Shown: positions 34,435 to 58,738 of the stretch, piece by piece
How the letters are laid out: each line of letters starts with the position of its first letter
Numbering within the stretch: the first letter of the stretch is position 1
Assembly (NCBI GenBank): GCA_965223845.1
Contig: CBDCXR010000004.1
Location: 7,456,001 to 7,520,000, forward strand
From: Planctomycetota bacterium
GTDB lineage: Bacteria > Planctomycetota > UBA8108 > SXIK01
Length of the DNA: 64,000 nt
Direction: 5' to 3'
Made by a program: the position numbers and the translations under genes
Notes under the pieces: generated by a model
Databases searched by the model: none
What the model was told of the DNA's origin: nothing
The model's input: only the letters and a program-made list of their open reading frames with translations

Positions 34435-34611
34435 TAGCCCGGTCTTCTCACCAGACTCGGTGAGCGAAGCGGCGAGCCGCCACAAGGCGTGAATGGACAA
34501 GGAGGTGGCGCCGGGCCGCCCGGAGGTGTGCTTCTAGCACAGTGAGGATCGGGGCGACGCATCCGATGCTCTTGTGGTGGCGCAGCAGAATCTGGTGAGA
34601 AGCCCGGGTTA
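34435..34611. mobile_element. MITE-like / REP-like element, copy 2
   Basis: TA-GCCCGGTCTTCTCACCAGA ... TCTGGTGAGAAGCCCGGGT-TA near-perfect TIRs with TA at both ends; the right TA is part of the stop codon of the FHA gene. Confidence 0.75.
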
Positions 34612-43469: not shown

Positions 43470-43715
43470 TTGGCTGCGCCGAAGAAGCTCTACAAGATCG
43501 GAGAGGTCATGCGCTACTCGGGCCTCTCCCGTCAGACGGTCCACAACTACACCATGCTCGGCCTCATCACCGAGGAGGAGCGGACTCCGTCGGGGCATCG
43601 GCTCTACGGCGAGGACGTCTTCGAGCGTCTCGAGCGAGTGAAAGAGCTCCGCAAGGACCACCGCCTGAAAGACATCATCGCCCTCTTCAAGGCGGAAGAG
43701 CTCGCCGGTCCCTGA
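43470..43715 (+). CDS. Stand-alone MerR-family HTH regulator
   Basis: KLYKIGEV.RYSGLSRQTVHNY..LGLI...RTPSGHRLY; TTG start after GGAGA (alternative ATG at 43392). Confidence 0.88.
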   Translation: MAAPKKLYKIGEVMRYSGLSRQTVHNYTMLGLITEEERTPSGHRLYGEDVFERLERVKELRKDHRLKDIIALFKAEELAGP

Positions 43716-43891
43716 GACCCGTCGACAGGCCCGCGACGCGGCGGCGGGCTCGCCGCGCCGGACACCGTTCCGGGTCCGCTGCGACCGGGCGTAGGTTTTT
43801 CGGACGGCGATGCGCCTGCGAGGCCGTCCAACGACCTAATCTCAGTTCGCAAAGGGGTTTAGCGTGTTCCGTAAAAGTTCGCTCTATTTCG

Positions 43892-43920
43892 TTTACATTT
43901 TGTAAAACAGAGAATAGAAT
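43892..43920 (+). promoter_or_regulatory. Sigma-70-type promoter of the fli operon with overlapping palindrome
   Basis: TTTACA-N17-TAGAAT in an AT-rich patch; TTTACA-TTT-TGTAAA inverted repeat at 43892-43906. Confidence 0.65.
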
Positions 43921-44140
43921 TCTCGAGCTTTGCCAGCGACCCTCGGTCGAATCGTCCGCGCCCCGCGCCGGACGGGACGGCCACGACGCCCCTTAGACGG
44001 GCGGTGAACGCCGACGCGGAGGAGTCGCGACCCCGAGGTCGCGATGCGCCGGCCGACGCCGCTCGAAACGAAGAAGTGGAAGAGAGATCCGGCCGCGCGG
44101 CGAAGGGTTTCGAGGTCACCTCGAAGCCGGAAGAGGAAAT

Positions 44141-44244: not shown

Positions 44245-45816
44245 TTGAATGGCCCAGTCGGAAACGTCAGTCTGAGAGGATGGCTGAGCGCTGCGCAGAG
44301 TCTTCTCGATCGCCTCTCCGCCACTCAGAAGATCGTTGTCGTCGTCGTCGCCGTGGCGGCAACCGTGGGGATGGCGTTCGTCGCGATCCGCGGGCGTCAA
44401 CCGGAGTACACGCGACTCGAGCTTGAGTCGGCCGCCGCGCGCTCGACGCTGACGGCGAAGCTCGACGAGAACGGGATCGCTTGGCGACCCGTCCCGAATG
44501 CCGAAACGCGACCCGCGATCGAGGTCCGCGCCGGCGAAGTCGCCAAGGCTCGCCGGTGGATCGAAGCGGCGTCGAGTTCCGAGGAGTCGGACGACGCGCT
44601 GTGGTCGGAATCACCGAGCTGGCTCGGCTTCGGTCCGCGACCCGGCGAGCTCGTCCTCCAAGCGAAGCTTCGTCGATTGCGCAACACGATCTGCTGGAAT
44701 CCGCGGATCGCCGAGGCGAGCGTCGAACACGAAGACTCCGACGACCGCGCGTTCGTCCGCGGGGAGAGTAGCGGGAGCGCGTCCGTCGTTCTCAAACTGA
44801 GTCCCGGTGTCGAGCGGCTGACCGTGCGCGAGGCGCAGGCCGTCCGGACGATCGTGAGCTCGGCGTTCGGCTTCCGGCCCGACAAGGTTCACGTCGTCGA
44901 CCACAAGATGCATCGCTACGACCTCGACGACGCCGAGACGGCGGCCGCCGAAGCTCGCTCGGAAGCGCTGCGCGCAGAAGTCGAGGAGCTCCTTCAGGAG
45001 CGATTCGACGACGCCGAGTTCCGCGTCTCGGTAAGCACGGTGCTTCGGGATACGGAGGCGAGAGTCGAAGCCGGCGCCGCGCCGCGCGCGAGTGGCGGTC
45101 TTCTCGGCGCACCGCAGTTGATCGCCCTCGCGAGGCCGGCTCCTGCGGTCGCACGGACCCGCGTCGCCGCACCGCGCCCCTCGTCGGCGTCCGCGGAGGC
45201 TGCGCGAACGAGATTCGTTCGGATCCGCGTCGATCGTTCGGCCGCTCTTCGCGTAGCGCGCGGGCGGGGCGAACTCGCCGGCAGCGTCGACACTGCGCTC
45301 CGCCGCTTCGAGGCGGGAGAGGCCGCGCGCATTCGCGATCGATTGATCGACCGATCGTCGCTCCATCTCTCCGTCACCGTCTTCGATTTCGGGTCCGTCG
45401 CGCGGCCCACGCCTTCCCGCGCGGTGTCCGAGCCGGCGACCGCGCCTCCCGCCGTCGCGTCGAATCCACCACCCGAGGAGGAGAGGATCTCCCTCGTCGA
45501 GCTTCTCAATCGCGAGCGTCGATGGCTCGGCCGGGCGAGCGTCGCGCTCGGTGTCGCGGTCGTCGTCGGCCTCGGCTATTGGCTGATTCGTCGTCGCCGC
45601 TCTGGTTCCGCGAGATCCGATCGCGACGAGCGCGGTCTCCCGCCGGCGCGGCCGAAGCGGATCGAAGAGCGCGCCGGCGACCGCGCGACTCCCGACGCAA
45701 TCGCATCGATCGACACGATGAGTGGGTGGGTCACGGAACGGCCGCAGTCGGCAGCGAACGTGCTCCGGGCATGGCTCGGATCCGATTCGGGACGCGAGGC
45801 AGGGGGCGAGCGATGA
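44245..45816 (+). CDS. fliF: Divergent MS-ring protein FliF-like
   Basis: TM1, KLDENGI.W, ASVVL, IVSSA.G..P.KV.VVD, RVSV, TM2, C-terminal P..AANVLRAWL; first gene of the fli operon; TTG start after GAAGGGGAG (ORF open from 44044). Confidence 0.75.
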   Translation: MNGPVGNVSLRGWLSAAQSLLDRLSATQKIVVVVVAVAATVGMAFVAIRGRQPEYTRLELESAAARSTLTAKLDENGIAWRPVPNAETRPAIEVRAGEVAKARRWIEAASSSEESDDALWSESPSWLGFGPRPGELVLQAKLRRLRNTICWNPRIAEASVEHEDSDDRAFVRGESSGSASVVLKLSPGVERLTVREAQAVRTIVSSAFGFRPDKVHVVDHKMHRYDLDDAETAAAEARSEALRAEVEELLQERFDDAEFRVSVSTVLRDTEARVEAGAAPRASGGLLGAPQLIALARPAPAVARTRVAAPRPSSASAEAARTRFVRIRVDRSAALRVARGRGELAGSVDTALRRFEAGEAARIRDRLIDRSSLHLSVTVFDFGSVARPTPSRAVSEPATAPPAVASNPPPEEERISLVELLNRERRWLGRASVALGVAVVVGLGYWLIRRRRSGSARSDRDERGLPPARPKRIEERAGDRATPDAIASIDTMSGWVTERPQSAANVLRAWLGSDSGREAGGER

Positions 45817-47039
45817 CCCGCGACGAGCTGCCATCCGTCTCGACTCGGGGCGCGGTCGGCGAGATCGAGGACGAAGCCGACGACGGGCACTCGCAGGCGT
45901 TCGGTCCCGCGGAGGAGTCCGAGTCGACGCTCGATGCGGGGGAGGGGGAAGCGCCGCTCGATCGAGACCTCGGCCTCGATCTCGCCAAAGGCGGTGGGGA
46001 CGGCGCCGACGGCTCTCCACTCGGCGGTCTCGAGGAGCTCGCCGACGACGAACGCGAGGTGGCCGGCGCGACGGATCGTCTCAGCGGGCTCGCGAAGGCC
46101 GCGGTGTTCATCCTCTCGCTCGACGAATCGGCCGCGTCGAACGTCCTTCGGTGCCTCTCCGACGAGGAGCTGAGTCGCGTCGCGGCCGAGATTGCCCACC
46201 TCGGCGTCGTCGACAAGGACACGGTCGAGGCCGTCCGCAGCGAGTTTCAAACGCTCGAGGTCGCGACGGGCGTCGTTCGCGAGGGGGGCGTCGAATCAGC
46301 GTCGCGCCTTCTCAGCCGATCGCTCCCTTCGTCCCGCGCTCGCCGGATGGTGCAGCTACTCGAAGCCGGTGGGACCCAGCGCCGCTTCGGTTTTCTCTCT
46401 CGCGTTCCGGTGTCGGGTCTCGTCGCGTACCTCCAGCGGGAGCGACCGCAGACGATCGCCGTCATTCTCGCCCACATGAGCCCCGCGACGGCGGCGGAGG
46501 TCATCGAGAGACTTCCCAATCACGTTCGCCGCAAGGTTCTTCCGTCGATCGCGAAGCTCCGTCGTGTGAACGACGAGGCGCTGCGCACGATCGAGTCGGC
46601 GCTTCGGCGTCAGTTCGAAGTCGCGCGCTGTGTGAAGCTGGGCGACGGGACGAAGACCGTCGCGGAACTCTTTCGCTCCGCCGGTCGCGAGCGCGCGGAG
46701 AAGTACTACGACGATCTGGAAGCCGCCTCCGGTGAGACGGCCGTGGCCGTACGCGACCACTTGTTCGATTTCCGCGATCTCATCCATCTCGAAGATCGAT
46801 TCCTGCGGCGCTCGCTCCGAACCGTCGATCGCCGCGAGCTCGCCGTCGCGCTCACGAACGTCGACTCGCGCGCGGAAGCCAAGGTCTTTCGCGCGCTGTC
46901 GCGCCGACGTGGAGCCGCCCTTCGGCGGGAGCGTCAGGCTCTCGGTCCGGTCCGTCTTTCCGACGTCGAGGTGGCGCAGCGAGCGGTCGCCGCGCGCATC
47001 GCCGAGTTTCGCCGCGGTCGCGAGGAGAAAGGCGCGTGA
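45813..47039 (+). CDS. fliG: C-ring protein FliG (divergent)
   Basis: LSGLAKAAVFILSL, GG, ERPQTIAVILAH, LFDF.DL, LGPVRLSDVEVAQ. Confidence 0.9.
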   Translation: MTRDELPSVSTRGAVGEIEDEADDGHSQAFGPAEESESTLDAGEGEAPLDRDLGLDLAKGGGDGADGSPLGGLEELADDEREVAGATDRLSGLAKAAVFILSLDESAASNVLRCLSDEELSRVAAEIAHLGVVDKDTVEAVRSEFQTLEVATGVVREGGVESASRLLSRSLPSSRARRMVQLLEAGGTQRRFGFLSRVPVSGLVAYLQRERPQTIAVILAHMSPATAAEVIERLPNHVRRKVLPSIAKLRRVNDEALRTIESALRRQFEVARCVKLGDGTKTVAELFRSAGRERAEKYYDDLEAASGETAVAVRDHLFDFRDLIHLEDRFLRRSLRTVDRRELAVALTNVDSRAEAKVFRALSRRRGAALRRERQALGPVRLSDVEVAQRAVAARIAEFRRGREEKGA

Positions 47040-48046
47040 ATCGGAACCGGGAGAACGTCGCTTCCACTTGCGAGCGAACGAGTCGAGCCGAGCTCTCGGC
47101 GGCGCAGCGCACCGAGTCGTCGGGCGGGCGATGGATCCGTCCCGTCGCCCCCGCGTCGACCGCGAGGTGTTCAAGCGGCGACGCTGCGCGACCGAGCGAC
47201 GACGTTTCCGCTGTGGCTTGGGACTCGATTCGCAGCGTTCGGGCTAGACTCGCAGAGCTCAGTCGGCGTGAACGCCGCCTCGAAGACGAGATCCGCCGGC
47301 GCTGGCGTCGTCTCGCCGGCAAGGCTTGGCGGCGACGCGCGGAGGCGGAGGCCGAGCTGCGCCTGCGCCGGGCGGAGCTCGAGGACGAGAACGAGCGCCG
47401 ACGGGAGCGAGCGGAACGAGAGGGAGAGGCGCGCGGATTCGAAGCTGGATTCGAGCGCGGCCGGGAGGAGGGGCGTCGCGTCGGCGCCGAGGCCGGGCGG
47501 AGAGCCGGACGGGAGGAGGGCGAACGAGAGGGGCGCGAACGAGGAGCGAAGGAGTCGCGCGCCGAGTTCGAGCGCGCGGCATCGAGTCTGCGTGCCGCTG
47601 CCGCCGCCCTCGGTGAACGACGTGAGCAGCTCGTTGCCGACGCGCGTGGATCCCTGCTCGAACTCGCGGTCGCGATCGCACGCAAGATCATCCGCGCTCG
47701 CGTCGACGTCGATCCGGAACTGGTCGGACGCACGGTCGCCGCCGCGGCGGAGCTCGTCGTCCGCAGCCGTGCCGTGACCGTCCAGGTGCATCCCGACGAC
47801 GCGCGCTTCGTGGAGCGCGAGCTCGGTGCGCGCCCGCCGTGGGCGGAGGGTTTCGCGAGCGTCGAGGTGAGGGCGTCGACCGGTGTCGACCGCGGCGGGT
47901 GCCGGCTGGTGACGGACGTGTCGTCGCTCGATCTTCGGATCGAAGCGCAGCTCTCGCAGATCGCCACCGCGATGGCGCGCGTGTACGGCGTGGAGCGGAT
48001 GGAATCTCCCTCGCTGGATCGGAAGGTGCCATGCGCGGATATCTAG
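47036..48046 (+). CDS. fliH: FliH/SctL-like stator of the export ATPase
   Basis: AxxxG(xxxG)n repeat ARGFEAGFERGREEG..., LAVAIARKII, VHPDD, GGCRL...D. Confidence 0.85.
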   Translation: MNRNRENVASTCERTSRAELSAAQRTESSGGRWIRPVAPASTARCSSGDAARPSDDVSAVAWDSIRSVRARLAELSRRERRLEDEIRRRWRRLAGKAWRRRAEAEAELRLRRAELEDENERRRERAEREGEARGFEAGFERGREEGRRVGAEAGRRAGREEGEREGRERGAKESRAEFERAASSLRAAAAALGERREQLVADARGSLLELAVAIARKIIRARVDVDPELVGRTVAAAAELVVRSRAVTVQVHPDDARFVERELGARPPWAEGFASVEVRASTGVDRGGCRLVTDVSSLDLRIEAQLSQIATAMARVYGVERMESPSLDRKVPCADI

Positions 48047-49326
48047 ACATCGTCGCTGACGTCTACCCGGGCGTGCTCGAAGCGCGGATCGATCGCGTGT
48101 TCGGCACGACGGCGGAGAGTCGAGGTCTCACGGCCCCGCTCGGCGCGACTTGTGCGATCGAGTCGCGGTCCGGCCACCGCGTCGAGGCCGAGGTGATCGG
48201 TTGCCGGAAGAATCACGCGATCCTCGCTCCGATCGGAGAGTTGCGCGGTGTCGCCGCCGGCGATCGCGTCGTGTACCGCGGAACGAGCGGAGTCGTCCGA
48301 GTGGGGATGGATCTTCTCGGCTGCGCGGTCGATGCTTCCGGCCGATCTCTCGACTCGCGCGGGCACGAATCGCGCGGAGCACTCGTCCCCATCGAGCCCT
48401 GTGAGATCGAACCACGCCGCGCGCTTTCCGCCGAGCGATCGTTCGTCACCGGCGTCCGCGCGATCGACGGTTTGTTTCCGGTCGGACGGGGACACCGCGT
48501 CGCGGTCGTCGCCGCGCCGGGTCTCGGGACGACGACGCTCTTTCGCTCGATCGCAAATGGAGCCGTCGCCGACGCGATCGTTCTCGCGTTCATCGGTGGA
48601 AGTCGACAAGACGCGATCGAGCTCTTCGCAGCGGAGCTCGCCCCTGGCGTCCGCGCGCGGTCGGTCGCAGTGATCGCGGCTGACGATGAGCCGCCGCTCG
48701 CTCGTTCGCGTGCGGCGCTCACGGCGACCGCGATCGCGGAGTTCTTCCGCGCCGCCGGGAAAAACGTCCTCCTTCTCGTCGACTCGCTCTCCGCGAGCGT
48801 CGACGCGCACGCGACACTCGGCGCGGCCGGAGGCGAGCGCCGGGACCCGCGCGGAATCCCGCCGTCGTCGTTCCCGTGGATCGCTAGGCTCCTGGGTCGC
48901 TGCGGGCGAGCGCCGTCCGGCAGCCTCACGGGAATCTACGCCGTGGCGGCGCCCGGAAACGATTCCGGCGCGGAATCCGTCGTGACCGAGCGGGTGCGGG
49001 CGCTCGTCGACAGCGAACTTCGACTCTCGCGTCGTCTAGCCGAACGAGGTCACTACCCGGCGATCGACCTCGGGTCGAGCTTCGTGCGCGGTGCGGAGCG
49101 GGTCCGATCGGCCGAAGTGGACGCAGCTGCCCGCGGGCTGCGGTCGCGGTGGTTGCGCGAGGACGCCGCGAGGGAGGCGAGCGTCGACGCGCCGCGCGAG
49201 TCGCCGCTCGACGAATTTCTCCGCCAAGCGCCGTCGGCGCCTGAGCCGTACGAGGCGACGATCGCACAGCTCACCCAGTGCGGCGCCGCCTTCCGACGGA
49301 ACGATCGCCTTGAGCAAAGCGAGTGA
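48031..49326 (+). CDS. fliI: FliI/SctN homolog with degenerate catalytic motifs (predicted pseudo-ATPase)
   Basis: AEVIG, TGVRAIDGL, G.R, AIAEFFR..GKNVLLLVDS, GSLTG.Y.V, LSR.LAERGHYPAID are retained; Walker A reads APGLGTTT. Confidence 0.88.
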   Translation: MRGYLDIVADVYPGVLEARIDRVFGTTAESRGLTAPLGATCAIESRSGHRVEAEVIGCRKNHAILAPIGELRGVAAGDRVVYRGTSGVVRVGMDLLGCAVDASGRSLDSRGHESRGALVPIEPCEIEPRRALSAERSFVTGVRAIDGLFPVGRGHRVAVVAAPGLGTTTLFRSIANGAVADAIVLAFIGGSRQDAIELFAAELAPGVRARSVAVIAADDEPPLARSRAALTATAIAEFFRAAGKNVLLLVDSLSASVDAHATLGAAGGERRDPRGIPPSSFPWIARLLGRCGRAPSGSLTGIYAVAAPGNDSGAESVVTERVRALVDSELRLSRRLAERGHYPAIDLGSSFVRGAERVRSAEVDAAARGLRSRWLREDAAREASVDAPRESPLDEFLRQAPSAPEPYEATIAQLTQCGAAFRRNDRLEQSE

Positions 49327-49679
49327 GAGGTAAAGCCGACGTGGTCGCAAAAAAGGAATCGGGCGCCGTGAACGCACTCGAATCAGCTCCGGCAGGACCG
49401 GCGGGCGCAGACGACCGCTCGGGCTCGGAGTCGAGCGCAGCGTACCGCGGCATCCACTTGAGTGTCCGCGCGGAGCTCGGCCGTACGCGGATGAAGTTGA
49501 AGGACGCGGTGGAGCTCGAGGCCGGAGCGGTCGTCGATCTCGATCGGAAACCGGGCGATCCCGTCGACCTTCTCGTCGAAGGCGTGGTGATCGCGCGCGG
49601 AGTCGTGCTCGTCGTCGACGATTGTTTCTGCGTCCGAATCACCGAGGTCCTTTCGGAAAAGGAAGAGAGTGCACCATGA
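49323..49679 (+). CDS. fliN: FliN (SpoA domain)
   Basis: V.AELGRTRM.L...L..GAVVDLDR..GDPVDLLV.G..IARG.V.VVDD.F.VRITE. Confidence 0.92.
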   Translation: MRGKADVVAKKESGAVNALESAPAGPAGADDRSGSESSAAYRGIHLSVRAELGRTRMKLKDAVELEAGAVVDLDRKPGDPVDLLVEGVVIARGVVLVVDDCFCVRITEVLSEKEESAP

Positions 49680-50332
49680 CGATGACCGCGAAGCGTCTCG
49701 TCCCAGGAATCGCGGCGCTGCTGATCCTCACGGGGATCGGTGCCGGTTCGGTTTCCGCCGATTCGACCGGCGGATTCGTTCGCGCGGGCGATTCGGTGAG
49801 CGACGTGCTCTCGGGCGCGCCATCGACCGAGAGCGACCGCGCGGAATCGAGTTTGGTCGGAGGTTGGCAGCTCGCCGGTCTCGGCGTCCTCCTCGTCGGT
49901 CTGGCGAGTTTCGCGTGGCGACTTCGTTCGCGCGGACTCGTTCGTCGGCGCGGCGCGTCGGAAGGGGGAACGATCACGATCGTCGATCGGGTCGCGCTCT
50001 CACCGCGGCATGCGGTGGCGGTGCTCCGGGTGTCGGAACGGACGCTCGTCGTCGGCTTTTCCGGTGATCGGGTCTCGCCTCTCGCTGAGTGGGGGGGCGA
50101 CGCGCTCGCCGGTGGCACGTCGGCAGAGACGGCGCCCGAGCGGCCGGAATCGTACTGGTTTCGCAACCCGCGCGACGCGAGCGGCGGCGCTCCCGAGACC
50201 ACGCTCGGGGCGAGCAGTGGATCGAGCGACGTTTGGGACCGCGACCTCGCCCCGTACCGGCGCGAAGTGACCCGGCTCAAAGAAGCGCTCGAGTCCTGGC
50301 GGGAGAATACCACGCCGCCTTCGAGCGAGTGA
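49676..50332 (+). CDS. fliO: FliO-like protein
   Basis: Signal peptide and TM, then ITIVDRVALSPRHAVAVLRVSERTLVVG; lies between fliN and fliP. Confidence 0.8.
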   Translation: MTMTAKRLVPGIAALLILTGIGAGSVSADSTGGFVRAGDSVSDVLSGAPSTESDRAESSLVGGWQLAGLGVLLVGLASFAWRLRSRGLVRRRGASEGGTITIVDRVALSPRHAVAVLRVSERTLVVGFSGDRVSPLAEWGGDALAGGTSAETAPERPESYWFRNPRDASGGAPETTLGASSGSSDVWDRDLAPYRREVTRLKEALESWRENTTPPSSE

Positions 50333-50359
50333 CAGACGGGAAGGGATGGACGAGTAGGC

Positions 50360-51223
50360 GTGCGCATGGGAACGCGACGACAGCGAGGCGGCGGTACTCT
50401 GCGCGGTAGCGCGGCGAGAGCCGGCGCGGTCACGATCGCGTGGCTCGTCTTCGCCGCCGGCGCGCCCGAGGTGGTGTGCGCCGTCGAGCCGGCGGACGCC
50501 GACAGCGTCCTACGGAACCTCGTCGGTCTCGAGCCGAGCGGTGCGCCGATGGCGATGCGGGTGCTCGTGCTTGTCACCGTGCTCGGAATCGTGCCGTCGA
50601 TCATTCTCTTGACGACCTGTTTCCCGCGCATCTTGATCCTCCTTTCGTTCCTCCGCCGTGCGCTCGGAACCCAGGATCTCCCGCCGCAGTCGGTCGTCAC
50701 CGGGCTCGCGCTCGTTCTCACCGTCGTCGTCATGCTCCCCGTTTGGCGAGAAGTGCACGCGAAAGCGTACGCGCCGCTCGTCGCCGGCGAGATCGAGACC
50801 GTCGAAGAGGCGCTCGCGCGAGCCGAGCGGCCGATCAAGGAGTTCATGCTTCGGCAGACGCTGCGGCGCGATCTCGCGCTCATGCTCGAGATCTCCGGCG
50901 AGACGCCGGCGCCCGCGACCTCGTCCTCGACGACGGCGGCTCCGAGTGGGAACGCGAACGGCGAGATCGATGCGGCGGACCTGCCGATCTTCGTCGTCCT
51001 CCCCGCGTTCGTTCTGAGCGAGCTCAAGCTCGCGTTTCAGATGGGATTCCTCATCTTTCTGCCGTTCGTGGTCATCGATCTCGTCGTGTCGGCCGTGCTT
51101 CTTTCGATGGGGATGTTCATGCTGCCTCCCGTTCTGGTCTCGCTCCCGCTCAAAGTGCTCGTATTCGTGATGGTGGACGGCTGGAACCTCATCGTCGGTC
51201 AGATGCTGCAGAGCTTCGCCTAG
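50360..51223 (+). CDS. fliP: Export gate protein FliP
   Basis: TCFPRI.I.LS.LR.ALGTQ..PP, PAF.LSELK.AFQMGFLIFLPF.VID.VVS.VL.SMGMFMLPP, LP.K...FV.VDGW. Confidence 0.96.
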   Translation: MRMGTRRQRGGGTLRGSAARAGAVTIAWLVFAAGAPEVVCAVEPADADSVLRNLVGLEPSGAPMAMRVLVLVTVLGIVPSIILLTTCFPRILILLSFLRRALGTQDLPPQSVVTGLALVLTVVVMLPVWREVHAKAYAPLVAGEIETVEEALARAERPIKEFMLRQTLRRDLALMLEISGETPAPATSSSTTAAPSGNANGEIDAADLPIFVVLPAFVLSELKLAFQMGFLIFLPFVVIDLVVSAVLLSMGMFMLPPVLVSLPLKVLVFVMVDGWNLIVGQMLQSFA

Positions 51224-51251
51224 CTCGTCGGTTCCCGCTTCGGAGAGACGT

Positions 51252-51521
51252 ATGGACATCGAGATCGCCGTCGAACTTTGCCGCCGCGCACTCGCGCTCG
51301 CGATGCAGATCGGCCTTCCGATTCTCACGGTGGGCCTCGTGGTGGGTCTCGTCGTCAGCGTCGCGCAGGCGGCGACTCAGATCCAGGAACAGACGCTCTC
51401 CTTCATCCCGAAGATGGCAGCGATGGTCGCGGCCGTGTTCTTGCTTCTTCCGTGGGTGCTCTCGGTCGTGACGACCTACACGCACCAAGTGCTCAGCCGC
51501 CTCGCGAGCGGGGGGCCGTGA
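51252..51521 (+). CDS. fliQ: Export gate protein FliQ
   Basis: GLVVGLVVSVAQAATQIQEQTLSFIPK. Confidence 0.96.
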   Translation: MDIEIAVELCRRALALAMQIGLPILTVGLVVGLVVSVAQAATQIQEQTLSFIPKMAAMVAAVFLLLPWVLSVVTTYTHQVLSRLASGGP

Positions 51522-51629
51522 TGGCGATTGCTCCGCGGCGTTCGCGCGTAGATCGCCGAGTGCGGCGAGCTCGCCGCGCGGTGCGCAACGCGTCGAGCGC
51601 GTTCGAAGTCGATCGATCCGAGTGCTCCG

Positions 51630-52451
51630 ATGCCCAGTGTAGACATCCTTTCCGAGTGGCTCGCCGCCGCGGCGCGAAGTCCCGAGGGCCAGATGCATCT
51701 CCTCGCGACCGCGCGGATTCTCGGGCTCGTTCTCGTCGCGCCGTGTTTCTCGAGTCGTGCGTTGTCGATGCGGCTCAAAGTGGCGATCGCGCTCGTCCTC
51801 GGACTCGCGATCGCCGTGCACCCGTCGAACGCGTCGCGGCTTCCTCCGGCGAGTGCGGCGGTCCCTTGGCTCGCCATCGCGACGGAAGGGATGATCGGGG
51901 CGGCGTTCGGGTGGGCGGTGTTCCTCGTCTTCGGTGCCGTCCGCTCGATGGCGACGCTTTTCTCCGAGCAGATCGGCTTCGGCTTCGGAGGGATCATCGA
52001 TCCTTCGTCGGGACCGGGTTCGGCGGTCCTCCGCGGGCTGTTCGGCGCGCTCGCCCTCTTCGTCCTTCTCGCGACGGATCTCCATCACGCGCTCCTTCGC
52101 GGCGTCGCCGAGAGCTTTGCGGTCATCCCGCCCGGGCAGGTGTTCGCCGCGGGCGTCGTCGATGGCCTGGCCCGACTCGCTCTCGCCGGCGGCGCCTTTC
52201 TCTTCGAGGCGGTCGTTCTCCTCGCGCTTCCCGTGTCAGCCGTACTGATGCTCGTCACGGTTGCGCAGGGCGTCATGACTCGACTCTTTCCGGAGCTCGA
52301 GACGGTGCTCTTCGGAATGCTCCTTCGGGGGCTCGTCGCGATCGGAGTCATCGCGTTCGCCCTGCCGTCTTTCGTGACGGCGAGCGAATCGCTGCTCACC
52401 GCCGCCCTCGAGGAGGGTCGTACCCTCGTTCGCAGTTTGACGACTCCTTGA
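51630..52451 (+). CDS. fliR: Export gate protein FliR
   Basis: R..G....P.FS, E.MIG, QIGFGFGGIIDP, D.HH, ESF..IP.G, LALP, R.FP; position after fliQ. Confidence 0.88.
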   Translation: MPSVDILSEWLAAAARSPEGQMHLLATARILGLVLVAPCFSSRALSMRLKVAIALVLGLAIAVHPSNASRLPPASAAVPWLAIATEGMIGAAFGWAVFLVFGAVRSMATLFSEQIGFGFGGIIDPSSGPGSAVLRGLFGALALFVLLATDLHHALLRGVAESFAVIPPGQVFAAGVVDGLARLALAGGAFLFEAVVLLALPVSAVLMLVTVAQGVMTRLFPELETVLFGMLLRGLVAIGVIAFALPSFVTASESLLTAALEEGRTLVRSLTTP

Positions 52452-52483
52452 GGTGACCGGATCGCCATTCGGGATGATCTGCC

Positions 52484-53287
52484 GTGAGTGACACGACCGA
52501 AAGAACCGAACGAGCGACCCAGAAGCGGCGCGAAGAAGCGCGCGCACAAGGGCGCATCCCGAAGAGCCGAGACCTCGTGCTCGCGCTCTCGCTCGTCGGG
52601 AGCTTCCTCCTGCTTCGGGCGGCGGGGGGACCCGTGGGCGACGATCTCCTCGGGTTCGTTCGAAGGTCCTTCGCCGAATTGAGCACCGCTTCCGAGCTCC
52701 GGACCTTCGACGTCCATGCCGTGCTCGTAGCGGGGATCGGCGTGTTCACGTCGGCCGTTCTCCCGTTCGCCCTCGTCGCCCTCGGAGTGACGATCGCGTC
52801 CTTCGTCGTCCAGGGGGTCTTCGTGCCGGCACCGCACTTGGTCCTCCCGCGGCCCGCACGGCTTCATCCGCTCGAAGGGATCCGCCGAACCGTTCGCCTC
52901 GAGAGTCTCGCGCTCGTTGGCTTCGCACTCCTCAAGCTCGCTCTCGTAGCGGGGTTTCTTTGGACTGCGATCGCGTCCGCCCTGGTCGACCCGAGCACCG
53001 TGACCGTGAAGAACGGGCGCTTTCTCACGCCGGAGGCGCTCTCCTCGTTCGGACTCGCGCTCGCGTGCGGACTCGCCGGCGCGGCGCTTCTCGACGTGAT
53101 CGTTCAGCGTTGGCTTTACGAGCGAAGCTTGCGCATGACCCCGGCGGAAGTGCGGGAAGAGGCGCAGGAGATGGAAGGGAACAGCAGCGTCAAGCGACAG
53201 CGGCGCCGCTTTTCGCGCTCGCTTCAGGGCGCCGGTCACGATCGTGTCGAGTCCGCTCCGCCGCTCGCCGGAGGGGGTGAGAGATGA
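52484..53287 (+). CDS. flhB: FlhB lacking the C-terminal NPTH autocleavage/switch domain
   Basis: ERTERAT.KRREEAR.QG.IPKSRD, four TMs, LRMT..EVREE..E.EG...VK; stops at 267 aa. Confidence 0.88.
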   Translation: MSDTTERTERATQKRREEARAQGRIPKSRDLVLALSLVGSFLLLRAAGGPVGDDLLGFVRRSFAELSTASELRTFDVHAVLVAGIGVFTSAVLPFALVALGVTIASFVVQGVFVPAPHLVLPRPARLHPLEGIRRTVRLESLALVGFALLKLALVAGFLWTAIASALVDPSTVTVKNGRFLTPEALSSFGLALACGLAGAALLDVIVQRWLYERSLRMTPAEVREEAQEMEGNSSVKRQRRRFSRSLQGAGHDRVESAPPLAGGGER

Positions 53288-55485
53288 GCGCCGCACGCCG
53301 GCCGGCTTCCGCATCGAGTCGATTCGCCTGGAGCTCTCCGTCGATGCACCGTCAGCCGCCGCTCTTTGCACCGCGATCGGCCGGAAACTCCGATCTCGCC
53401 GTTGTCGCCGCGCTCCTCGGGATCCTCTTCGTCATTCTTGTTCCGCTCCCGACGTGGCTGATCGACGGCCTTCTCGTCGTCAATGTCGTCGCATCGCTTC
53501 TTATCCTGATGACGACTGCTTGTCTCTCCGCTCCGCTCGAGTTCAGCGTGTTTCCGTCGGTCCTCTTGATCGCGACCTTCTTTCGGCTCGCACTCAACAT
53601 CGGGACGACGCGACTCATCCTCGGGGGAGACGGCGGTGCGACCGCCGCCGGCGGCGTCATCGAGGCATTCTCGACCTTCGTGGCCGGAAGCAATCTCGGC
53701 GGCGGCAGCGGGAGCAATCTCATCGTCGGACTGATTGTGTTCGCGATCATCATGGTCGTTCAGTTCGTCGTCATCACGAAAGGGACGACCCGCGTCTCCG
53801 AGGTGACCGCTCGGTTCACACTCGACGCGATGCCGGGGAAGCAGATGAGCATCGACAGCGATCTCGCTGCGGGTCTCATCGACGACGCGACCGCGCGCGA
53901 GCGACGCCGTGAGGTGAGTCGCCAAGCCGAGTTCTACGGCGCGATGGACGGGGCGAGCAAGTTCGTGCGCGGCGAGGCCCTCGCGGGCCTCGTCATCACG
54001 CTCGTCAACGTCGGCGCGGGTTTCCTCGTGGGCGTCTTCCACCACGGATTCTCGGTGGGGGACTCCGCGGAAATCTTCACCCGCCTCACGATCGGCGACG
54101 GCCTCGTGAGTCAAATCCCCGCGCTCATGGTCTCGGTCGCGACGGCGCTCATCGTGACGAAGAACGCGGCGGGGGAGAACCTGGGTCGCGACCTCTGGGA
54201 CCAGCTCTTCGCGAACGACCGAATCCTCTTCATGGTGTCGGCGTTTCTCCTCCTGCTCATCCCCTCGGGAATTCCGGCCGAGGCGCTCATCCTCGGCGCG
54301 ATTCTCTGCGGCGGGTTTGCGTTTCACTTGCGGAGACGACGTACTTCGGACGAGCGCGGCGAGTTCGAGGACGAGGAGGAAGAATTCGCCCTCGAAACCG
54401 GCGAGGCAGCGGGCGTCGAGCAGGAAGACGTTCGTTCACTCCTCGCCGTGGAGTCGATCGAGCTCGAGCTCGGCTTCCGCCTCGTCGGTCTCGTGGACGA
54501 GGAGCGTGGCGGAGACTTACTCGAGCGGATCGCGCGCGTGCGCGAGCGCGTTGCGATCGAGCTCGGATTCGTTCTGCCGCCGATTCGAGTTCACGACAAC
54601 ATCCGCGTGCGTCCGACGGAGTACACGATTCGACTCCGGGGAAACTCGCTCGGATGTTGGCGCGTCTATCCCGATCGATGGTTCGCGCTTCGCGGACCGG
54701 GAGTCGATGACGATGTCGAGCTCGAAGGAATCTCGGGTCGCGATCCACTCACGGGGGAAGCCGGCGTGTGGATCGACGACGATCGATCGCCTGCGGCCGG
54801 TCGCGCCGGGTGGACGGTGCGATCGGTGGCCGAGCTCCTCAGCGATCACCTCGAGAGCTTCGTCCGCTCCCACTCCTTCGAGATCTTGAGCCGCGAAGAA
54901 GTCGCGCGACTCGTCGCAGACCTCCGCACGCGCGCGCCGGTCGTCGTCGACGAGCTCATCCCCGCCCAGATGAAGCTCGGGCAGATCCACCGAGTTCTCG
55001 AGGAACTTCTGCGCGAGAACGTGAGCGTGCGCGACCTCGAGACGATCCTCACGGCGCTCGCCGACGCGCGGGAAGCGGGGGTGACCGAGATCGACGGGCT
55101 CGTCGCGCGGGTGCGGCGAGCGCTCGCGCGAACGATCTGCGGATCGGTCGCGGATGCCGAGCGGCGAATCCACGGCCGCCGGATCGACCCGGAGCTCGAG
55201 GACTTCCTCGCCGCCTCGATCCAGAGCGAAGCGCGACGGTTCGCACTCGCGCCGGGCGTCGCCGAATCGCTGGCGGGGACGCTCGCCGCCTCCCTCTCCG
55301 CCGGCGTCGATCGCGCCGGGGGAGTCGTGTTGTGCTCGGCGGCGATTCGCGCGCCGCTCCAGCGGCTCCTTCGCGAGACAGCCGGCCGCGCGACGGTGAT
55401 CGCGTACGACGAAGTGTGTGAAGGGTACCGGATCGAGTCTGCCGGATCGATCCGATTGGAAGAACTCGAACGAGCACTTTCGTAG
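53284..55485 (+). CDS. flhA: Export gate protein FlhA
   Basis: FPSVLLIATFFRLALN..TTR, RVSEV.ARFTLDAMPGKQM.ID.DL.AG, FYGAMDGASKFVRGEA, TIGDGLVSQIP, LL.E.VSVRDLETIL. Confidence 0.96.
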   Translation: MSAARRPASASSRFAWSSPSMHRQPPLFAPRSAGNSDLAVVAALLGILFVILVPLPTWLIDGLLVVNVVASLLILMTTACLSAPLEFSVFPSVLLIATFFRLALNIGTTRLILGGDGGATAAGGVIEAFSTFVAGSNLGGGSGSNLIVGLIVFAIIMVVQFVVITKGTTRVSEVTARFTLDAMPGKQMSIDSDLAAGLIDDATARERRREVSRQAEFYGAMDGASKFVRGEALAGLVITLVNVGAGFLVGVFHHGFSVGDSAEIFTRLTIGDGLVSQIPALMVSVATALIVTKNAAGENLGRDLWDQLFANDRILFMVSAFLLLLIPSGIPAEALILGAILCGGFAFHLRRRRTSDERGEFEDEEEEFALETGEAAGVEQEDVRSLLAVESIELELGFRLVGLVDEERGGDLLERIARVRERVAIELGFVLPPIRVHDNIRVRPTEYTIRLRGNSLGCWRVYPDRWFALRGPGVDDDVELEGISGRDPLTGEAGVWIDDDRSPAAGRAGWTVRSVAELLSDHLESFVRSHSFEILSREEVARLVADLRTRAPVVVDELIPAQMKLGQIHRVLEELLRENVSVRDLETILTALADAREAGVTEIDGLVARVRRALARTICGSVADAERRIHGRRIDPELEDFLAASIQSEARRFALAPGVAESLAGTLAASLSAGVDRAGGVVLCSAAIRAPLQRLLRETAGRATVIAYDEVCEGYRIESAGSIRLEELERALS

Positions 55486-55551
55486 AGAGACCGAACGCCG
55501 GGCGAAGCGCTCGGTGACGCGGGTCCGACGTTTAGGAAGGAAGAGAAAGCT

Positions 55552-56799
55552 ATGACGTTTCGCCTCACTCGTATCGAGGCGCCGACCATGGATGAAGCGC
55601 TCGATAAGGTGCGCGACATGTTCGGCAGCGATGCGATGATCGTGAGCTCTCGCACGTTTCGTCGCGGGGGCGTGCTCGGCTTCGGTGGCCGCGAAGTTGT
55701 CGAGGTGTTCGCCGCCGACACGCGTTCGCGGATCGAGAACGTCGAGCGCGAGCGATCGAATCGCGTCCGGCCAGAGGACTCCAGCCCGGCCGCGGTGCTG
55801 AGTCGCTCTCCGAAGCCGGGCTCGGGCGGCGAGAGCGCGAACGGGGGCACGGGGAAAGCGAGCGGCGGTGCGGAGGCGGAGAACGGAGCCGCGTCCGCGG
55901 GGGGCAAAGGTCCGGCGTTCGAGGAGTTCGCGAGCGCGCTCGGACAGATTCGAGCCGAGATTCGCCAGTTCGTCTCGCGGACCGGCGGAGTGCATCACTA
56001 CAACCATCCGTTCCTCGCCGAGTGCTACGACCTCCTCGTCACGTGTGAGGTCGACGCTCAGGTCGCGGATCGCATCGTCCAGCTCATCTCCCACCTCAAC
56101 ATCCCGGACGGCTTCCCGGATCCGTCGCGCGTGCGCTCGGTCGTGCAAGCGCAGCTCGCGAAGCTGTTCGTCCCTCCGGCCGCCGCCGATGCGACGAAGA
56201 AGCCGCAGTTGATCTCTCTCATCGGGCCGACGGGCGTCGGGAAAACGACGACGATCGCCAAGCTCGCCGCGCGGGCGAAGATCAACGAGGGGCTGAGCGT
56301 CGGACTCGTCACGCTCGACACCTTCCGCATCGCCGCCATCGATCAACTCGAGAAATATGCGGAGATCATCGGGCTGCCGATGGCCGTCGCAACGCAGCCG
56401 CAGGAACTCGTCGAGGTCATCGACGAGTTTCGCGAGCGCGGAGTCGACCTCGTCTTCGTCGACTCCGCGGGAAGGAGTCATCGCGATGAGATGAAGATGG
56501 CGGAGCTTCGCGCATTCCTTTCCGTTCTACCGGATGTCGAGGTGCACCTCGTCCTCAGCACGACGACCCACGGCTCGACTCTCGAGAACGTCGCGAGTCG
56601 ATTCGCCGGCATCGGCTTCGATCGCCTGATCCTCACCAAGGTGGACGAGTCCGTCTCGTTCGGCGCACTCGTGAAGACGCTCCTCGCGATCGGTCGCCCG
56701 GTCTCGTTCGTCACCGACGGGCAGAACGTTCCGGACGACATCCTTCCCGGCGATCCGAACCGGCTCGCCAGTCTGGTTCTGAAGACGAAGGCGCAATGA
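55552..56799 (+). CDS. flhF: SRP-family GTPase FlhF
   Basis: A.TM.EAL.KV...G.DA.I, GPTGVGKTTTIAKLAA, DTFRIAA.DQL..YA, DSAGRS, TKVDE, GQNVPDD. Confidence 0.96.
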   Translation: MTFRLTRIEAPTMDEALDKVRDMFGSDAMIVSSRTFRRGGVLGFGGREVVEVFAADTRSRIENVERERSNRVRPEDSSPAAVLSRSPKPGSGGESANGGTGKASGGAEAENGAASAGGKGPAFEEFASALGQIRAEIRQFVSRTGGVHHYNHPFLAECYDLLVTCEVDAQVADRIVQLISHLNIPDGFPDPSRVRSVVQAQLAKLFVPPAAADATKKPQLISLIGPTGVGKTTTIAKLAARAKINEGLSVGLVTLDTFRIAAIDQLEKYAEIIGLPMAVATQPQELVEVIDEFRERGVDLVFVDSAGRSHRDEMKMAELRAFLSVLPDVEVHLVLSTTTHGSTLENVASRFAGIGFDRLILTKVDESVSFGALVKTLLAIGRPVSFVTDGQNVPDDILPGDPNRLASLVLKTKAQ

Positions 56800-56803
56800 G
56801 GGC

Positions 56804-57661
56804 GTGACGATGGACCAGGCAGAGAATCTCAGGAATCTGGTGAGGGGCACCGAGAGCCGGGCGCGCTTCCTCGCCGTCACCAGCGGAAAAGGGGGGGTCG
56901 GGAAGACCAATCTCGCCGTCAACCTGGGCGCGGCGATGAGCCGTCTCGGGAAGAAGGTGATCCTCGTCGACGTCGACATCGGCCTCGCGAACGCGGACGT
57001 GATGTTATCGGTCGCTCCGCGGCTCAATCTCGGCCACGTCCTCGCGGGCGAGGTCTCGGTGCTCGAGGTGCTGACGCCGACGCCGAGCGGGGTCCTTCTC
57101 CTCCCCGGATGCGTGGGAATGCGGCACGTTTCCGATCTCGACGATCACGAGCGCGAGTTCCTCGTGCGCGGCTTTCAAGAGCTGGAGGCCTACGCCGACA
57201 TCGTCCTCATCGACACCGGCGCAGGAATTTCTCGGAATGTCGTTCAGTTTGCGTCCGCATGTGACGAGATCTTGATAGTGACGATGCCGGAACCTACCGC
57301 GATGACGGACGGTTACGCCGTGATCAAGGCGGTCGCCCGCGAAAAGGGTCGCGGGAAGATCCGGCTCATCGTCAACCAGTGCCGCGATCGAGCCGACGCC
57401 CGCCGCGTGAGCGAGCGGATCCGTATGGTCTCGAAGCGGTTTCTCGGCATCGAGGTCGAGGATCTCGGCTACGTGGTGACGGATGAGATCGTTGGACAGT
57501 CCGTGCGGGAGAGACGTCCATTCGTGCTCGAGTACCCGCGGAGTCCCGTGACGCGCTGCGTATGGGAGATCGCCGGACGCTTGGTCGCGCCCGAGAACGC
57601 GCCCGCGAGCGGTGGGGTGTTCCGCCGTTTCGCCCGCGCGCTCACGAGTGTGCTCGGTTGA
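56804..57661 (+). CDS. flhG: MinD-like ATPase FlhG/FleN
   Basis: MDQAENLR, VTSGKGGVGKTN, DVDIGLAN, IDTGAG, PEPTAMTDGY. Confidence 0.95.
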   Translation: MTMDQAENLRNLVRGTESRARFLAVTSGKGGVGKTNLAVNLGAAMSRLGKKVILVDVDIGLANADVMLSVAPRLNLGHVLAGEVSVLEVLTPTPSGVLLLPGCVGMRHVSDLDDHEREFLVRGFQELEAYADIVLIDTGAGISRNVVQFASACDEILIVTMPEPTAMTDGYAVIKAVAREKGRGKIRLIVNQCRDRADARRVSERIRMVSKRFLGIEVEDLGYVVTDEIVGQSVRERRPFVLEYPRSPVTRCVWEIAGRLVAPENAPASGGVFRRFARALTSVLG

Positions 57662-57718
57662 CCGAATCGCGGATCCGATTCGATCCGTTCGGGGGAAGAG
57701 AAGATTCCAGCGAAGAGA

Positions 57719-58738
57719 ATGAGGGGAGGTACTCCGGTGAGCGGAGTCCGAGGAACCAAAGCAGGACGGTCATCCGGGAGCCAGACGGCGACTGCCACCA
57801 AGCGATCGCGGCTGGAATCGGGCGGAGAGACGTCGGCGACGACGACACTCCCGCGAAAGTCTCGACTCTCGTCTACGCGAGGCGGAGTGGCGACGCGCAG
57901 CAGTGGGAAGAGCGAGGCCGCGGCGGAGACGACCACCGCGACGAAGAGAACGCGAAAGCGCAAGATCGCCGGAGATCCGAGCGAGATCGAAGCCGTTTGG
58001 AAAGAGTTCAAGAAGACGGGCGACCAGCGGCTCCGCAATCTGCTCATCGAGCGGTACCTGCCGCTCGTCAAGTACATCGCTGAACGCCTTCTCGCAAAGC
58101 TCCCGCAGAACATCGAGCTCGACGATCTGACGAGCGCGGGGATCTTCGGGCTGATGGACGCCGTCAAGGGCTACGACCTCAGCCGCGGCGTAAAGTTCGA
58201 AACCTACTGCACGACTCGCATTCGCGGCGCGATCCTCGACGAGCTGCGCTCGCTCGACTGGGTCCCGCGGATCGTTCGGAACAAGGCGAACCGCATCGAG
58301 AACACCTGGAAGACGCTCGAGATGGAGCTCGGGCGCTCGCCGACGGACATGGAGATGGCCCGCCATCTCGAAATGACGCCCGAGGAGTACCAGGACATGA
58401 TCCGCGAGGCGAGTGCGATCACGATCGTGAGCCTCACGGACAAGACGAAGGACGATCAGGGCTCGAAGAGCCTGCGAAAGATCGATGTCCTCGAGGACAA
58501 GAAGGGAATCGACCCCGAGTACGAGCTGAAGCGGAAGGAAATCACGGACTTCATCACCCGCGGTCTCAGTCGGAAGGAGCGCCTCATCCTCCTTCTCTAC
58601 TACTACGAAGACCTCACGATGCGGGAGATCGGCGCGACGCTCAGTCTCTCGGAGTCGCGCGTCTGTCAGCTTCACTCGCGCATCATCTTCCGGCTGAAGA
58701 ATCAGCTGAAGAAGTACCAGTCGGAGCTGCTGAGCTAG
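57719..58738 (+). CDS. fliA: RNA polymerase sigma-28 (FliA/WhiG family) with long N-terminal extension
   Basis: DDL..AG..GL.DA, GVKFETY...RIRGAILDELRSLDWVPR, LYYYEDLTMREIG..L.LSESRVCQLH. Confidence 0.96.
   Translation: MRGGTPVSGVRGTKAGRSSGSQTATATKRSRLESGGETSATTTLPRKSRLSSTRGGVATRSSGKSEAAAETTTATKRTRKRKIAGDPSEIEAVWKEFKKTGDQRLRNLLIERYLPLVKYIAERLLAKLPQNIELDDLTSAGIFGLMDAVKGYDLSRGVKFETYCTTRIRGAILDELRSLDWVPRIVRNKANRIENTWKTLEMELGRSPTDMEMARHLEMTPEEYQDMIREASAITIVSLTDKTKDDQGSKSLRKIDVLEDKKGIDPEYELKRKEITDFITRGLSRKERLILLLYYYEDLTMREIGATLSLSESRVCQLHSRIIFRLKNQLKKYQSELLS

Follow-up and report, generated by a model that had tools for sequence, protein, structure and literature searches.

A planctomycete genome assembled to 7.93 Mb in 4 contigs (91.7% complete; the study genome) encodes a reduced flagellum that we read, tentatively and with slightly less than even confidence, as a rod-less type III export gate with the anti-sigma factor FlgM as its cargo and with secretion coupled to the sigma-28 regulon. 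The stretch analyzed, C4:7456001-7520000 (64,000 nucleotides; the window), holds the gene cluster at positions 44245-58738 of the + strand, where Pfam and NCBIfam models recognize 14 open, co-oriented genes in the order fliFGHI-N-OPQR-flhBA-flhFG-fliA (Table 1). A first-pass annotation made from the letters of the window alone had described 14 intact co-oriented reading frames, and all 14 are indeed open, on the + strand and matched by the families it named. The 4-nucleotide overlaps that it listed are exact: ATGA at fliF/fliG (45813), GTGA at fliG/fliH (47036) and at fliI/fliN (49323), and ATGA at fliN/fliO (49676) and at flhB/flhA (53284). Its frame for fliG is correct, since FliG_N, FliG_M and FliG_C are all found in it. 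Its interpretation is largely borne out, but its inventory was incomplete, in that flgM and a sigma-28-type promoter in the same window had been missed, as had fliM and a second fliN-like gene elsewhere in the genome, the exact end of FlhB before its NPTH domain and the loss of the Walker A lysine and catalytic motif of FliI. The start of fliF is uncertain (44044, 44230 or 44245), and that of fliI is most likely the ATG 16 nucleotides within fliH. The best NCBIfam match of all 14 genes is a flagellar model, with FliI nearly tied with SctN. The NCBIfam equivalog cut-offs are passed by FliP and FliQ only; FliG, FliR, FliO and FliN fall below theirs by smaller margins, and FliI (275 versus 619), FliF (34 versus 130) and FlhB (122 versus 349) fall far under.

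Genes for the axial structure and the stator were found neither in the cluster nor elsewhere in the study genome. Flg_bb_rod, Flg_bbr_C, Flagellin_N, FliE and MotB_plug have no genome-wide Pfam match over cut-off. The best Flagellin_N match reaches 13.3 bits (E 0.36), compared with 100-119 bits in 9 flagellated relatives, in each of which the rod/hook and flagellin searches find 3-6 rod/hook genes and 3-4 flagellins. Clade-specific tblastn queries were taken from G025, a flagellated relative of the same class with the gene order flgB-flgC-fliE-fliFGHIJ-(2 unknown)-flgD-flgE-flbD-motA-motB-fliL-fliN-OPQR-flhBAFG-x-fliA, in which several of the labels among flgB, flgC, fliE, fliJ, flgD, flgE, flbD, motA, motB and fliL are positional only, without a Pfam match. 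None of these queries, fliJ included, matches the study genome at E<=1e-3, and at E<=1 there are chance-level matches only (E 0.006-0.95, with flgB, flgC, fliE, flgD and flgE at E >= 0.2); the two unknown G025 open reading frames (ORFs) at the fliK position likewise have no significant match. Rod and flagellin matches are absent too from the single-contig relative G003. Six MotA/ExbB-family genes are present in the study genome, and the G025 MotA and MotB queries find no significant match.

The rotor has fared differently. The MS-ring/C-ring set is present, with FliF, FliG and FliN encoded in the cluster and, elsewhere, a diverged fliM (C4:585737-586934, 93 bits) and a second FliN-like gene (C4:193370-193840). 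In flagellated relatives fliM also lies outside the main cluster, the G025 copy being on another contig. A genome search for a second FliI gives only an adjacent pair at 31% identity, which are candidate ATP-synthase subunits, and weaker P-loop matches. The first-pass annotation had proposed that axial and motor genes were missing and that two blocks, flgB-flgC-fliE before fliF and the genes from fliJ to fliM between fliI and fliN, were cleanly absent. The genome-wide check that it suggested found no rod, hook, flagellin, FliE, MotB, second FlhB or second FliI. The phrase 'no motor genes' is too strong, because fliG, fliM and two fliN-type genes are present, and it holds for the stator only. 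By comparison with the G025 order both blocks are truly gone, because the G025 genes beyond the 14 have no significant tblastn match; fliM has to be taken out of the claim, as it was never in that block in G025 and is retained elsewhere here. The study genome has no ORF at the FliJ position, because fliN begins in the fliI stop codon. In G003 and in a second relative, G001, ORFs of 161 and 153 aa (L026:5837-6322, - strand, and L027:10025-10486, + strand) stand directly after fliI at that position, with no Pfam match and no significant similarity to G025 FliJ or to each other.

What might explain the retention of a complete gate when everything it used to build has gone? In the flagellum, rod/hook-type substrates dock at the C-terminal domain of FlhB (FlhB-C), which also carries out the specificity switch from early to late substrates; late substrates use the C-terminal domain of FlhA (FlhA-C), and FlgM uses FliA as a chaperone. 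The FlhB of the study genome stops right after the basic linker preceding the NPTH switch domain; it aligns to residues 4-250 of the 376-aa solved FlhB, and NPTH is absent. The sole Bac_export_2 match in the genome covers positions 2-239 of 335, which leaves neither a second FlhB nor a separate gene for FlhB-C. FlhB is short in 17 of the 18 reduced genomes examined (255-280 aa, with open frames of ~270 aa in three), compared with 364-370 aa and an NPTH motif in three flagellated relatives, and it terminates at the same linker position in both main reduced clades. In G022 (family f5) FlhB is full-length, with NPTH replaced by NPSE. Short FlhB constitutes a large family: when a profile built from 13 short sequences was searched against 1.84 billion representatives, 68 of the best 150 representatives at 50% identity were <=300 aa, and an NPTH-like motif was found in none of the 68. 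A word-indexed homologue search with FlhB returned 17 matches, with no informative names. No description of a naturally C-domain-less FlhB was found in the literature within our reach, which did not extend to supplements and subscription journals.

The export ATPase has also changed. The Walker A motif of FliI reads APGLGTT, compared with GSGVGKS in relatives and in EscN (by alignment to the Protein Data Bank structure), and its lysine is therefore lost; the GERGRE motif has become GGSRQD, and DSxTR has become DSLSAS. Of 204 positions at which three flagellated relatives do not vary, FliI keeps 104, compared with 168-173 in six other reduced genomes, and among those compared the catalytic motifs are lost in this lineage only.

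Divergence across the cluster is selective, as had been claimed from the sequence. Identity to G003 descends from 89% for FliA through FlhF (72%), FlhA (63%), FlhG (62%), FliP (61%), FliQ (60%), FliN (52%), FliR (50%) and FliG (45%) to FlhB and FliI (38% each) and FliH (34%), with FliF only weakly similar; FliA is 72% identical to that of flagellated G025. Positions invariant in flagellated species are kept in FliP (37/39), FliQ (13/13), FliR (12/14), FlhF (43/44), FlhG (11/11) and FliA (35/35), and of the 77 FlhA positions that do not vary among 17 flagellated species, 71 are kept (membrane part 59/62, linker and C-terminal part 12/15). The retention of invariant positions was used for the study genome because its own synonymous divergence (dS) is saturated. 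In genus g5 of family f2, where dS is 0.66-1.66, the ratio of nonsynonymous to synonymous divergence (dN/dS) indicates purifying selection on the core genes, at 0.05-0.34 and close to the values of the flanks: fliP 0.12-0.14, fliQ 0.05-0.15, fliR 0.17-0.20, flhB 0.21-0.27, flhA 0.11-0.14, flhF 0.14-0.20, flhG 0.18-0.34 and fliA 0.10-0.12, with fliO at 0.34-0.40 and the flanking genes for LarC and a HEAT-repeat protein at 0.09-0.17. By analogy with g5, similar selection probably acts on the copy in the study genome, in which the gate, FlhF, FlhG and FliA look fully constrained. The own-branch dN of FlhA, calculated by hand, is not accelerated (0.19 versus 0.23 in G003).

The reduced state is common in the class. 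Among 41 class genomes, study genome included, FlhA is found in 39, and rod/hook C-terminal domains and flagellin occur together in the same 9; FlhA without rod or flagellin is found in 31 of the 41, and 31 of the 32 rod-less genomes have FlhA. Family f1 (study genome, G001 and G003) has the order fliFGHI-N-OPQR-flhBAFG-fliA and shared flanks, consisting of a GTPase gene and a small MerR gene upstream and, as seen in G003, LarC and the HEAT-repeat protein downstream. Genus g5 has the MerR gene upstream and LarC/HEAT downstream, fragments only of fliF and fliG, and no fliH, fliI or fliN matches. The MerR-type gene is present upstream of the cluster in f1, f2 and f5 genomes, in copies that are 58-70% identical. 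In three genera of family f6 the locus consists of a gene resembling fliF, then fliH, fliI and fliOPQR-flhBAFG-fliA. Their FliI is canonical, with GSGVGKS as its Walker A motif and 60-64% identity to that of a flagellated relative; FliG, FliM and FliN were not found in these genera. The FliF-like protein of f6, 639-651 aa, is encoded directly upstream of fliH with no fliG between (L132:2951-4906, L124:3074-4993 and L122:2401-4338, all on the - strand), its identity being Pfam-checked in G031 and assigned in the other two by position and N-terminal likeness. G022 (f5) retains fliE, fliF, fliG fragments, fliH and fliI. In nine reduced loci mapped gene by gene, FliOPQR, the FlhB membrane domain, FlhA, FlhF, FlhG and FliA are present in all, except that G022 has no fliO match, while the accessory FliF, FliG, FliH, FliI, FliM and FliN are lost stepwise across the reduced genomes. 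What is always kept, then, is the set of parts needed to assemble and place a proton-driven gate, together with the sigma factor, and what is always deleted with the axial genes is FlhB-C, the altered NPSE protein of G022 apart.

How often did this happen? In a tree of 31 FlhA sequences (IQ-TREE quick search, LG+G4, rooted on four Firmicutes), the class forms one group beside other Planctomycetota, with a support of 80 in the SH-like approximate likelihood ratio test (SH-aLRT). The FlhA of the study genome is nested within the flagellar sequences of Planctomycetota, in agreement with the proposal that the system is flagellum-derived. Three changes are needed to account for the reduced state on this tree, and strongly supported branches compel at least 2 of them; the reduced branches are a clade of f1 and f2 (100), a long-branched f6 trio (100) and G022 as sister of flagellated G028 (100). 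At least 2-3 origins of the reduced state are thus indicated, a count that is indicative only, because the tree is thinly sampled and was built from a gene of the very machinery whose reduction is being counted. The first-pass annotation had excluded random decay on the strength of the overlapping junctions. Conservation across genera of the reduced order, the flanks and the short FlhB leads to the same view, and together with the purifying selection on core genes in the sister genus it argues against ordinary decay. Candidate FlhA-C-like paralogues may be encoded outside the cluster at G003:C1:334890-337531. In a wider sample of 251 Planctomycetota genomes that are >=85% complete, FlhB is found in 150 and rod domains in 138, with FlhB but no rod domain in 16. 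Eleven of these 16 come from this class; the FlhB match is short in the nine for which match rows were listed, and low scores suggest that it is also short in G027 and G029. Outside the class, G043, G083, G166, G192 and G263 have a full-length FlhB match and no rod-domain match, G043 (100% complete) having an unusually weak FlhB score of 187 bits; additional independent reductions or gaps in the assemblies may account for these five.

The proposed cargo is encoded in the same window. FlgM is 37-60% identical to the FlgM of relatives, with its N-terminal 12 residues conserved, and the geometry of its promoter is the same in the g5 genomes compared and variant in G001. FlgM is found in 9/9 flagellated and 19/32 rod-less genomes, the latter including 4/4 of f1, 13/14 of f2 and 2/3 of g13. 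A model of the FliA-FlgM complex scored 0.70 versus 0.00 for the best control. Of 80 solved complexes 58 reach this score, and of 110 mismatched pairs 2 do; the runs shared >=73% of contacts, with a predicted local distance difference test (pLDDT) value of >=67 for the partner. A similar complex has been solved, so this pass shows likeness only. The conserved N-terminal 12 residues of FlgM are not part of the interface predicted with FliA.

On the main contig there are 9 copies of the sigma-28-type motif YAAAG-N15-17-CCGATAW, compared with 0 in the reversed sequence and 0-2 when any of eight other spacers is used. The corresponding counts are 7 versus 0 in G003, where 4 of the 7 are one identical repeated sequence, and 9 versus 1 in G001. 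The four identical 28-nt copies in G003 (G003:C1:912139, 2361511, 2376111 and 3476045) are presumably part of a repeated element. A strict consensus, TAAR-N14-16-GCCGATA, gave 2 matches versus 2 in the control and was replaced by the motif seen upstream of flgM. The motif precedes flgM (here and in g5), fliA (in g5) and fliM (in G001). Other copies in the study genome, at C4:8445-8471, 1426310-1426337, 6318732-6318759 and 7185469-7185497, are followed respectively by mraZ (dcw cluster), glgB, the gene for a Wza-like polysaccharide-export lipoprotein and that for an M14 carboxypeptidase, and in relatives the downstream genes include ftsK (g5) and those encoding GH57, glucan phosphorylase and a GHL10 protein. 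Among the downstream genes compared, the genomes have no more than flgM and one GHL10 protein in common, and the content of the regulon is tentative because there is so little overlap. Around flgM in the window there are three large genes on the + strand: a 1154-aa protein with 11 CarboxypepD_reg repeats (21736-25200) ends ~300 nt upstream, and a 707-aa Ser/Thr protein kinase identified by Pfam (27338-29461) and a 1533-aa ORF with, by eye, a kinase-like N-terminus (29674-34275) lie downstream.

How could such a system work? FliPQR, the membrane domain of FlhB and FlhA would form an inner-membrane type III gate, with FliO as an assembly factor, seated in this genome in an MS-ring/C-ring scaffold of FliF, FliG, FliM, FliN, FliH and a dead FliI, and FlhF and FlhG would place and count it. 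Export would be driven by the proton-motive force through FlhA. FlgM, the sole remaining recognizable cargo, would be exported into the periplasm, and the activity of the gate would free sigma-28 (FliA), whose regulon would no longer encode flagellar parts. Because there are no rod, hook, filament or stators, there would be no rotation and no appendage, and exports would end in the periplasm. The loss of FlhB-C fits FlgM as cargo because FlhB-C serves rod/hook substrates, whereas FlgM relies on FlhA-C and FliA. We infer assembly, export, FlgM as cargo and the polar location. ATPase-independent flagellar export has been documented in Salmonella (PMC4230889).

Several observations weigh against the FlgM-exporting gate. 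FlgM was undetected in 11/11 reduced f6 genomes (g14, g17 and g18), which keep the gate, FliA and a canonical FliI. Unless it has diverged beyond detection there, FlgM therefore cannot explain retention in every lineage, and the intact ATPase of f6 without a detectable FlgM argues that another cargo or another role is likely. Two g5 genomes show no enrichment of the sigma-28 motif (4 versus 4 and 4 versus 2). FliI is, to judge by its motifs, probably a catalytically dead pseudo-ATPase, and its own-branch dN is 0.47 compared with 0.17 in G003 (three-taxon estimate, by hand). FliE, which helps to open the FliPQR gate, is absent here, and we know of no organism in which export by any gate without FlhB-C has been tried. 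Between the study genome and G003 or G001, dS is 1.2-2.9 and saturated, so that the study genome's own dN/dS is unreliable. Finally, the genes from fliF to fliO have a lower GC content at third codon positions (0.72-0.78) and mostly a higher one at second positions than those from fliP to fliA. This shift in composition suggests relaxed constraint on the scaffold half of the cluster; given the relaxed composition of these first six genes and the dead FliI, some of the cluster may be in the process of being lost, as has happened to fliH, fliI and fliN in f2.

The f6 genomes, with FliH, a canonical FliI, the gate and FliA and no detectable FlgM, point to an alternative in which a repurposed secretion system exports other proteins to the periplasm or envelope and FlgM is incidental. 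Precedents exist in Lysobacter enzymogenes, which lacks functional flagellin and is reported to secrete non-flagellar proteins through its flagellar type III secretion system (T3SS) (PMC7688988), and in the argument that the ancestor of the injectisome was a motility-less flagellum derivative used for translocation (PMC3459982). We nevertheless consider this unlikely, as neither a candidate cargo nor a chaperone or outer-membrane conduit turned up in the neighborhood of the clusters, the ATPase is dead here, f2 is without FliH and FliI, and the substrate-docking FlhB-C is gone. FlhF and FlhG, which are among the best conserved proteins of the cluster, would suit a non-secreting polar landmark or membrane platform acting with them in cell-cycle or envelope organization, comparable with the proposed CORE/nanotube or 'hat-like' structures. 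The minimal set of FliOPQR-FlhBA is the CORE of PMC6456723, a flagellar-T3SS-related, hat-shaped inner-membrane structure with no function assigned is described in PMC9380563, and sigma-28-type promoters stand before mraZ here and before ftsK in g5. That the membrane residues of FlhA and the invariants of FliP, FliQ and FliR are kept suggests a working channel, and the role of CORE in nanotubes is disputed (PMC7532143), which makes a mere platform improbable in our estimation.

Could the cluster of the study genome, or at least its fliF-fliO half, be a slowly decaying relic without function? The catalytic motifs of FliI were lost only in this lineage, FliF scores far under its cut-off, the composition of fliF-fliO is shifted, and f2, with its fragments of fliF and fliG and no matches for fliH, fliI or fliN, would be the end point of such a course. 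Decay without function is about as improbable as the polar platform, given that the 14 ORFs are open and five of them translationally coupled, that FliI has stayed open over 431 codons despite its divergence, that nearly all invariants from FliP to FliA are kept, that g5 shows purifying selection and that the core survives at least 2-3 independent reductions. It is more improbable still, to the point that we would hardly expect it, that a flagellum is still built, with axial and stator proteins that have diverged beyond the reach of the searches used. The genome is not fully complete, it has the MotA/ExbB-family genes, and small axial proteins can escape detection; yet the Pfam and clade-specific queries that fail here detect the 9 flagellated relatives, there is no MotB plug, the same absences recur in single-contig G003, and FlhB-C and an active FliI are missing. 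The FlgM-exporting gate that we favor could be extended across the class, such that several of its lineages would independently have made the flagellum into a new organelle, a rod-less and FlhB-C-less gate opening into the periplasm, whose secretion of FlgM, and perhaps of other cargo, would run a sigma-28 program for non-flagellar functions, a broader proposal that we hold to be doubtful. Candidate targets for such a program are cell division (mraZ, ftsK), alpha-glucan metabolism and polysaccharide export.

The cluster resembles the canonical flagellar export apparatus in having all five gate proteins together with FliO, FliH and FliI in the usual order of the clade. Unlike in the canonical apparatus, for which FliPQR-FlhB has been solved (6s3l, 8z5s), FlhB-C and the Walker A lysine of FliI are gone, and FliJ, FliE and all export substrates except FlgM were not found. 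Nor does it group with injectisomes: flagellar NCBIfam models outscore the Sct models for FliP, FliQ, FliR, FliN and FliH, with near ties for FliI and FlhB, and FlhA is nested in the planctomycete flagellar clade and not with Sct proteins. Partial flagellar gene sets are known from other non-motile bacteria. Rod and hook genes persist in Buchnera, and chlamydiae have three orphan genes (FliI, FlhA and FliF) in addition to a full injectisome, unlike the full gate and rings without any axial gene found here in free-living bacteria with large genomes.

Another parallel is Lysobacter enzymogenes OH11, in which flagellar export genes are kept without a filament and are proposed to be repurposed (PMC7688988; PMC7277350). 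OH11 has no functional fliC, but its hook cap protein FlgD is still secreted, and both flhB and an active FliI are in use (PMC7688988), whereas here no hook or rod genes are left, FlhB is short and FliI is dead. The CORE, FliOPQR-FlhBA, is kept without the rest in Myxococci, Chloracidobacterium thermophilum and Succinatimonas (PMC6456723), and it is also the minimal set common to the reduced planctomycete lineages. Unlike CORE, the planctomycete set is always accompanied by FlhF, FlhG and FliA and mostly by FlgM, has an FlhB without its C-domain, and is clade-wide and recurrent. Abby and Rocha listed 61 replicons with partial loci, nearly all flagellar in origin (PMC3459982). The needle-less T3SS of Myxococcales, or the inferred first step toward the injectisome, is similar in that motility parts were shed and a translocation core was kept (PMC3459982); it differs from the present system, which originated independently inside the flagellar sequences of Planctomycetota and whose best NCBIfam matches are mostly flagellar. 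The portions available of PMC12248157, PMC13063649 and PMC10746217 contain nothing on Planctomycetota. We found no description of a rod-less export gate or a short FlhB in this phylum, within a literature that excluded supplements and subscription journals, which may list such genomes.

The reduced flagella known so far are for the most part isolated curiosities or cases of decay in symbionts. What is notable here is the recurrence, the selection, the deletion of FlhB-C and the retained FliA/FlgM loop, in large-genome planctomycetes known only as metagenome assemblies. The class could be viewed as a natural experiment that separates self-sufficient export parts (FliOPQR, the FlhB membrane domain and FlhA, with FlhF, FlhG and FliA) from parts coupled to axial assembly (FlhB-C, FliE and FliJ, and later FliH, FliI and the rings). 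It yields a hypothesis on the role of FlhB-C and a candidate model for the transition from flagellum to secretion system, and sigma-28/FlgM offers a handle on regulation in a poorly known phylum. If the broader proposal of a new organelle made independently in several lineages is true, these bacteria show, alive and more than once, the step with which injectisome evolution is postulated to have begun, and they prove by nature's own example that the 'essential' FlhB switch domain can be dispensed with after the early substrates have gone.

Table 1. Promoter and genes of the reduced flagellar system in the window, with positions counted from the first nucleotide of the window
Feature	Position	Strand	Evidence
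Sigma-28-type promoter TAAAGTTC-N12-CCCGATAA	25415..25442	+	60 nt upstream of flgM
flgM, anti-sigma-28 factor, 91 aa	25503..25778	+	Pfam FlgM 34.4-34.8 bits vs cut-off 25
Small MerR-type helix-turn-helix gene, conserved upstream neighbor	43470..43715	+	Pfam MerR
fliF (MS-ring)	44245..45816	+	YscJ_FliF 45 bits; NCBIfam fliF 33.8 vs cut-off 129.75
fliG, 408 aa, acidic N-terminal extension	45813..47039	+	FliG_N, FliG_M, FliG_C; TIGR00207 202 vs 226.7
fliH	47036..48046	+	Pfam FliH 74 bits; NCBIfam FliH models
fliI, probable pseudo-ATPase, 431 aa	48031..49326	+	ATP-synt_ab; FliI_clade1 275 vs cut-off 619
fliN	49323..49679	+	FliMN_C 73 bits; TIGR02480 81.5 vs 84.05
fliO	49676..50332	+	Pfam FliO 38 bits
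fliP	50360..51223	+	Pfam FliP 233 bits; TIGR01103 219.7 vs 217.45
fliQ	51252..51521	+	Bac_export_3; TIGR01402 92.3 vs 88.9
fliR	51630..52451	+	Bac_export_1 147 bits
flhB, membrane domain and linker only, 267 aa	52484..53287	+	Bac_export_2 positions 2-239 of 335
flhA, full length, 733 aa	53284..55485	+	FHIPEP 715 bits, positions 1-654 of 657
flhF, SRP-type GTPase	55552..56799	+	SRP54 148.7 bits
flhG, MinD-type ATPase	56804..57661	+	AAA_31/CbiA/ParA
fliA, sigma-28, 87-aa low-complexity N-terminal extension	57719..58738	+	Sigma70 r2, r3, r4

Between the MerR-type gene and fliF, positions 43880-43960 are markedly AT-rich in a background of 66% GC; this stretch, which has no sigma-28 motif, is likely the promoter region of the cluster. 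Two further genes of the window lie on the - strand. The protein encoded at 34609-36126 has FHA, GAF and HD_5 domains, the FHA domain also matching the model for the cytoplasmic domain of the T3SS protein YscD, and may be a signaling phosphodiesterase. At 16654-17052, ~8 kb upstream of flgM, a stand-alone PilZ-domain protein of 132 aa is encoded that is possibly a receptor for cyclic di-GMP.

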